A stretch of 64,000 nucleotides of DNA from Escherichia coli. GTDB taxonomy: Bacteria; Pseudomonadota; Gammaproteobacteria; Enterobacterales; Enterobacteriaceae. The stretch lies in assembly GCF_029227855.1 (NCBI RefSeq), contig NZ_CP074356.1, one strand, 5' to 3'. This document shows, in pieces, positions 14,363 to 14,726 of the stretch. Both the position numbers and the translations under genes were made by a program. Below the pieces are notes generated by a model, which saw nothing but the letters and a program-made list of their open reading frames with translations, did not search any database and was not told the DNA's origin. The first letter of the stretch is position 1; the number at the start of each line of letters is the position of its first letter.

Positions 14363-14726
14363 GCCCTTCTCCCTTTGTAACAACCTGTCATCGACAGCAA
14401 CATTCATGATGGGCTGACTATGCGTCATCAGGAGATGGCTTAAATCCTCCACCCCCTGGCTTTTTTATGGGGGAGGAGGCGGGAGGATGAGAACACGGCT
14501 TCTGTGAACTAAACCGAGGTCATGTAAGGAATTTCGTGATGTTGCTTGCAAAAATCGTGGCGATTTTATGTGCGCATCTCCACATTACCGCCAATTCTGT
14601 AACAGAGATCACACAAAGCAACGGTGGGGCGTAGGGGCAAGGAGGATGGAAAGAGGTTGCCGTATAAAGAAACTAGAGTCCGTTTAGGTGTTTTCACGAG
14701 CACTTCACCAACAAGGACCATAGATT
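14363..14726. promoter_or_regulatory. Divergent malK / malE promoter region with MalT boxes and a CRP site
   Basis: GGAGGA-type MalT boxes (gggaggagg 14471-14479, ggaggatga 14482-14490, ggaggatgga 14641-14650) and a CRP-like tgtaacagagatcaca (14598-14613) read directly. Confidence 0.8.

Follow-up and report, generated by a model that had tools for sequence, protein, structure and literature searches.

Does the DNA between malK and malE of this Escherichia coli strain keep the binding sites for MalT and CRP from which the divergent maltose operons are controlled? We addressed the question in a 64-kb window (the whole stretch of DNA analysed), where the sequence and the list of open reading frames (ORFs) leave a gap of exactly 364 bp, 14363-14726, between two coding sequences:

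13247..14362, minus strand: malK coding sequence, 371 aa, ATG on the complement of 14360-14362; collinear with K-12 malK (b4035)
14727..15917, plus strand: malE coding sequence, 396 aa, ATG at 14727-14729

The Control Region and Its K-12 Counterpart

MalK and MalE were identified from their translations and by tblastn. ORFs and synteny place them at the heads of two divergent operons, malK opening malK-lamB-malM and malE opening malEFG, and the gene order, malM-lamB-malK followed divergently by malE-malF-malG-xylE, is that of K-12 MG1655 read as its reverse complement. Alignment with the K-12 control region gave 363 identical bases of 364, with no gap, indel or rearrangement; loss or rearrangement of the MalT boxes, for which an earlier note on this DNA had proposed the alignment as a check, was not seen. 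Of 5426 complete E. coli genomes, 5412 have the region, each as a single copy, and in 5191 of them it is at least 99% identical.

We are almost certainly dealing with the E. coli malB locus and its canonical divergent control region, malEp-malKp, and none of the observations speaks against this. Besides the flanking genes and the length of 364 bp, the K-12 region shares with the window five clusters of MalT sites, three CRP sites and a weak fourth, both -10 hexamers and the cre tag, and differs from it at one base outside all of these sites (14620, G in K-12 and A in the window). The malK-malE control region is already known biology; the earlier note had labeled it so, correctly. The window holds a new copy of a known sequence.

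The K-12 annotation has no gene inside the control region, and an Rfam search of it matched no RNA family. Two small plus-strand ORFs that overlap it (14154-14417 and 14624-14821) were judged spurious, because they run out of frame over malK or malE and nothing is annotated there in K-12.

MalT Boxes on Both Sides

Scanning for exact GGA(G/T)GA cores recovered five in the 364 bp, four on the malK side and one on the malE side. GGAGGA occurs at 14445-14450 on the minus strand and at 14472-14477, 14482-14487 and 14641-14646 on the plus strand, and GGATGA at 14485-14490 on the plus strand. At the window-wide rate of 55 cores per 64 kb, both strands counted, 0.31 would be expected, which makes the enrichment 16-fold (Poisson P ~2e-5); the window contains no denser cluster, and five cores are reached in none of its other 364-bp stretches. 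Ten-mers were scored against GGGGAKGAGG, which we take to be the MalT consensus. The site numbers 1-5 and 3'-5' are assigned after what we take to be the usage of the Raibaud and Richet papers.

14443..14455, minus strand: MalT site 3/3', malK-proximal, two registers 3 bp apart with cores GGAGGA (14450 to 14445) and GGTGGA (14453 to 14448)
14455 to 14446, minus strand: site 3/3', register 1, GGGGTGGAGG, 9/10 to consensus
14452 to 14443, minus strand: site 3/3', register 2, the register of the GGAGGA core
14470..14482, plus strand: MalT site 4/4', two overlapping registers offset by 3 bp
14470-14479, plus strand: site 4/4', register 1, GGGGAGGAGG, 10/10 to consensus
14473-14482, plus strand: site 4/4', register 2, GAGGAGGCGG, 8/10 to consensus
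14480..14492, plus strand: MalT site 5/5', cores GGAGGA and GGATGA offset by 3 bp
14480-14489, plus strand: site 5/5', register 1, CGGGAGGATG, 8/10 to consensus
14483-14492, plus strand: site 5/5', register 2, GAGGATGAGA, 8/10 to consensus
14626..14635, plus strand: MalT site 2, a degenerate box, GGGGCGTAGG, 8/10 to consensus
14639..14651, plus strand: MalT site 1, malE-proximal, AAGGAGGATGGAA, core GGAGGA at 14641-14646

The boxes adjoin both promoters, three with double registers on the malK side and two on the malE side, and the statement of the earlier note that MalT boxes flank the center on both sides is borne out by the core counts. Site 3 faces malK, and sites 2 and 1 face malE. Sites 4 and 5 form a direct repeat 10 bp apart, in the orientation opposite to site 3. 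The malK-side double registers underlie, at the sequence level, the published model in which MalT is repositioned between sites 3/4/5 and 3'/4'/5'. A further 10-mer match, at 14636-14645, is an off-register overlap of site 1 and was not taken as a MalT site.

Motifs of the GGAGGA or TGTGA type could also be chance purine-rich or Shine-Dalgarno-like sequence with no regulatory architecture behind it. GGAGGA does resemble a ribosome-binding site, and one 10-mer match (14365-14374, 8/10 to the MalT consensus) is by its position the Shine-Dalgarno sequence of malK; it was not taken as a MalT site. The enrichment given above speaks against chance, however, and the regulatory motifs lie 80 to 280 nt away from the start codons.

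CRP Sites Between the MalT Clusters

Every 22-mer was scored against TGTGA-N6-TCACA at the 10 core positions, and matches of 7/10 or better were listed. Three tandem sites were found between the two MalT clusters, and a fourth half-site, which scores below the listing threshold, was read directly from the sequence.

14532..14553, center 14542.5: CRP3, TTTCGTGATGTTGCTTGCAAAA, 7/10 core matches
14566..14587, center 14576.5: CRP2, TTATGTGCGCATCTCCACATTA, 8/10 core matches
14595..14616, center 14605.5: CRP1, TTCTGTAACAGAGATCACACAA, 9/10 core matches
14499..14520, center 14509.5: CRP4 half-site, TTCTGTGAACTAAACCGAGGTC, perfect TGTGA left half and poor right half

Sites scoring at least 8/10 number two in the region, against 0.10 expected. 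From CRP4 through to CRP1 the centers are 33, 34 and 29 bp apart, each step being about three helical turns. Consensus scans, proposed in the earlier note as a second check, do recover MalT boxes on both sides with CRP sites between them. That note had spoken of a single CRP-like site; its presence and location hold, and its number has to be raised to three conserved sites and a non-conserved half-site. A full-text literature search for the CRP1 site sequence returned no match.

Promoters and Ribosome-Binding Sites

A sigma-70 consensus scan of 14300-14800 found no -35/-10 pair, as would be expected because a MalT box replaces the -35 element and the promoters are activator-dependent. The following elements were assigned from position and conservation.

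14417..14422, minus strand: candidate malKp -10 hexamer, CATAGT (ACTATG on the plus strand)
14669..14674, plus strand: candidate malEp -10 hexamer, GAAACT, with A2 and the ACT at positions 4-6 conserved
14365..14374, minus strand: predicted malK Shine-Dalgarno region, GGGAGAAGGG, 2-11 nt upstream of the ATG and conserved across genera
14713-14717, plus strand: malE Shine-Dalgarno sequence, AAGGA

In an alignment of the window with 25 other Enterobacteriaceae, ACTATG at 14417-14422 is identical in all 26 sequences, and GAAACT at 14669-14674 stands exactly 28 nt from the core of MalT site 1, again in 26 of 26. These two are likely the -10 hexamers, with MalT boxes standing where their -35 elements would be. 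TATAAA at 14663-14668, a better-looking -10 element and the first choice for malEp, was rejected since it is not conserved and has the wrong geometry. The 10-mer at 14365..14374 would be a ribosome-binding site and not a MalT box, judged by where it lies.

A transcription start 7-8 nt downstream of each hexamer would fall at about 14411 (minus strand) for malK and about 14682 (plus strand) for malE. For placing the starts we used a published malE-malK start-site spacing that we take to be 271 bp. With 252 nt between the hexamers, counted from start to start, transcription starts at about 14411 and 14682 would fit, and these are 271 bp apart. Given a malE start at about 14682, CRP1-3 are centered at -76.5, -105.5 and -139.5 from malEp, in agreement with the database entries. 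The genome-wide transcription start site supplements of Kim 2012 contain no malE or malK entries.

Conservation and Spacing in Other Species

A conserved MalE peptide, written as a degenerate DNA pattern, served to retrieve 120 loci from a collection of species-representative genomes, and malK and malE were divergent in 86 of them (87 counting the K-12 locus, L002). The intergenic regions of 25 Enterobacteriaceae other than E. coli, 60-94% identical to the window, made up the alignment. All MalT boxes and CRP1-3 are conserved in it. Between the predicted starts, mean identity to the window was 0.80 in predicted sites versus 0.56 outside them (Mann-Whitney P ~2e-13).

The MalT clusters have a mean conservation of 0.86-0.96. 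At least 95% conservation was found for 11 of 13 positions in site 3/3' and likewise in site 4/4', for 9 of 13 in site 1, and for 8 of 10 in site 2, where GGGCGTAG is nearly invariant in the 26 sequences. At MalT site 1, where E. coli has GGAGGATGGAA, many other genera show GGAGGATGAGA. CRP1-3 show the pattern expected for CRP, with half-sites at 0.71-1.0 versus 6-bp spacers at 0.42-0.76: in CRP3 the left half CGTGA is at 1.0, the right half at 0.77 and the spacer at 0.54; in CRP2 the half-sites are at 1.0 and 0.71 and the spacer at 0.42; in CRP1 the half-sites are at 0.88 and 1.0. CRP4 is not conserved (mean 0.46, 0 of 22 positions at 95% or above) and probably has little or no function. No more than three adjacent CRP sites are reported to be required, in line with the non-conservation of CRP4.

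Spacing was invariant in 26 of 26 sequences for every step from the malKp -10 hexamer to MalT site 3, from MalT 4 to 5, MalT 5 to CRP3, CRP3 to CRP2, CRP2 to CRP1, CRP1 to MalT 1, MalT 2 to 1, and MalT 1 to the malEp -10 hexamer. The sole exception is the step from MalT 3 to MalT 4, which differs by 1 nt in six species; from one -10 hexamer start to the other, the distance is accordingly 251 nt in these six and 252 nt in the window and the remaining 19 species. Intergenic length ranges from 338 to 467 bp in the aligned set, with all of the variation within the 5' UTRs.

In the 25 other species, no positions of the region are better conserved than the motifs, and their spacing stays fixed while the flanks drift. 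As far as sequence comparison can tell, this conservation refutes the reading of the motifs as chance or Shine-Dalgarno-like sequence, to which we attach practically no probability. The canonical architecture, which the earlier note had called apparently intact, is so in the sense that its elements and their spacing coincide with the parts conserved among these Enterobacteriaceae.

In other Enterobacterales (Citrobacter, Enterobacter, Kluyvera, Pluralibacter, Yersinia, Serratia and Photorhabdus, among others) the MalT boxes, CRP sites and -10 hexamers agree in order, orientation and spacing with those of the window, but their inter-site sequence is only ~56% identical to that of the window and neither CRP4 nor the cre tag is conserved. 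A distance of ~195 bp between the proximal MalT boxes was found in Yersinia, Serratia, Hafnia, Rahnella, Pantoea, Edwardsiella, Photorhabdus and Xenorhabdus, and a looser layout with ~203-213 bp in Vibrionaceae, Moritella and Pasteurellaceae. In Vibrio loci the order is likewise a box on the minus strand, then one on the plus strand, then CRP sites and a final plus-strand box. Vibrio malK is MalT-dependent, with a MalT box overlapping its promoter, and its 5' UTR carries the sRNA Vsr217 (PMC8265627). The Vibrio intergenic regions measure 400-760 bp and include this long, sRNA-yielding malK 5' UTR, whereas the malK 5' UTR of the window would be ~49 nt.

Longer malK-malE gaps of 680-1459 bp were seen at five loci (L020, L034, L087, L095 and L096), which belong to Klebsiella sp. 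BIGb0407, Serratia oryzae and Yersinia spp. In the three of these that were scanned (L020, L034 and L087) the MalT/CRP core keeps a geometry of ~195-199 bp. It is on the malK 5' side that the gaps are extended, which recalls the Vsr217-bearing malK 5' UTR of Vibrio (PMC8265627).

The constraint on spacing belongs to the whole family of mal regions and is not special to the window. The fixed distance of 252 or 251 nt could be taken further, to mean that MalT and CRP build one rigid assembly and that selection acts on each of its spacings, the 61-nt stretch with CRP4 among them; the common A/G change at 14620 could then have a subtle tuning effect on the complex. We consider this reading improbable. 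The fixed spacing across species is a clear, though expected, illustration of a textbook multi-activator nucleoprotein complex.

How the Region Would Work

The mechanism of MalT and CRP action outlined here is reportedly that of Raibaud et al. in 1989, of Vidal-Ingigliardi and Raibaud and of Richet et al. in 1991, and it is also said to draw on Richet and Sogaard-Andersen in 1994 and on the work of Richet and colleagues up to 2000. MalT oligomers activated by maltotriose and ATP would bind the boxes cooperatively, and cAMP-CRP at the three central sites would bend the DNA, so that the whole region of ~210 bp would become one nucleoprotein complex activating both promoters. At malKp, the bending induced by CRP would move MalT by 3 bp, from a non-productive register to an overlapping productive one. 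Which of the malK-side registers is the productive one we infer from these papers. Oligomerization of MalT upon activation by maltotriose and ATP has been described (PMC10427625), and the repositioning of MalT by CRP at malKp is cited in PMC7408454.

Beyond annotation the result is of little importance: the strain carries an intact maltose regulon switch, and therefore malEFG and malK-lamB-malM, with the phage lambda receptor LamB, should show a normal response to maltodextrins and normal catabolite repression.

The Substitution at 14620

The sole difference from K-12 MG1655, A in the window versus G in K-12 at 14620, is found 4 nt past the end of the CRP1 22-mer and 6 nt short of MalT box 2. 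A canonical-looking region might still be functionally altered if this G>A change shifted expression of the maltose regulon, and the base does sit inside the nucleoprotein complex, as the only point at which the two strains differ there. It is outside all predicted sites and consensus positions, however, and is less than 60% conserved across genera. Moreover, the exact 364-bp haplotype of the window is found in roughly 30% of complete E. coli genomes (100% identity, estimated from an evenly spaced listing of the matches). The window therefore carries a common allele, and K-12 is just as likely to hold the variant allele at 14620. An altered expression due to this base seems to us highly improbable, and we regard the A/G change as probably neutral.

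A Putative CreB Operator Upstream of malE

A sequence matching the cre tag, whose consensus TTCAC-N6-TTCAC is reportedly that of Avison et al. in 2001, is present downstream of the predicted malE start:

14693..14708, plus strand: cre tag, candidate CreB operator, TTCACGAGCACTTCAC, TTCAC-N6-TTCAC

It is the one match to TTCAC-N6-TTCAC in 64 kb, against 0.09 expected, and falls inside the predicted malE 5' UTR. Outside Escherichia the tag is weakly conserved (mean 0.67). Within the Cre regulon, malE is described as the single gene that CreBC represses (PMC3962086), and CreB probably represses it through this tag in the 5' UTR.

A Deletion Variant and Other Features of the Window

A natural mal control region without CRP sites was observed in E. 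coli JJ2434 (NZ_CP013835.1), one of two E. coli genomes with a match covering less than 80% of the region. Its positions 2501-2705, compared with 14482-14648 of the window, show a clean deletion of 159 bp that takes out all CRP sites and MalT site 2. The deletion ends in an 8-bp direct repeat, GGAGGATG, common to MalT box 5 (14482-14489) and box 1 (14641-14648), and the two boxes are therefore fused.

Elsewhere in the window, several stretches differ from K-12. Between malM and the yjbI homolog, ~700 bp not present in K-12 (9908-10608) make up an element of the IS200 type; its Y1 transposase ORF occupies 10011-10520 on the minus strand (Pfam PF01797), and an Rfam STnc490 RNA lies at 10479-10602. 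The yjbI homolog itself (8152-9480, minus strand), a pseudogene in K-12, is here an open reading frame of 442 aa; it has pentapeptide repeats, and its central domain is SopA-like.

Between lysC and yjbD, an island of ~3.4 kb not found in K-12 (29119-32569) encodes, on the plus strand, a zeta-toxin-like P-loop protein (29257-30189) and, on the minus strand, an RlaP/pol-beta-type nucleotidyltransferase (30225-31025) and an SPFH/Band 7 protein (31022-32149); it may be a defense or toxin-antitoxin-type island. Relative to K-12, 143 bp downstream of pgi are missing at 25593/25594 and 612 bp of arpA at 42831/42832. The Clermont phylotyping marker yjaA is also missing, with 110 bp at 49981-50090 in the place of ~518 bp in K-12. 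These three differences mark the window as DNA of a non-K-12 strain.

Rfam naRNA4 elements (REP/BIME-type) were found in the lamB-malM and malE-malF intergenic regions (11752-11822 and 15981-16051, respectively), and two more copies lie downstream of aceK (45051-45226). A tandem repeat differs from that of K-12 at 45095-45147.
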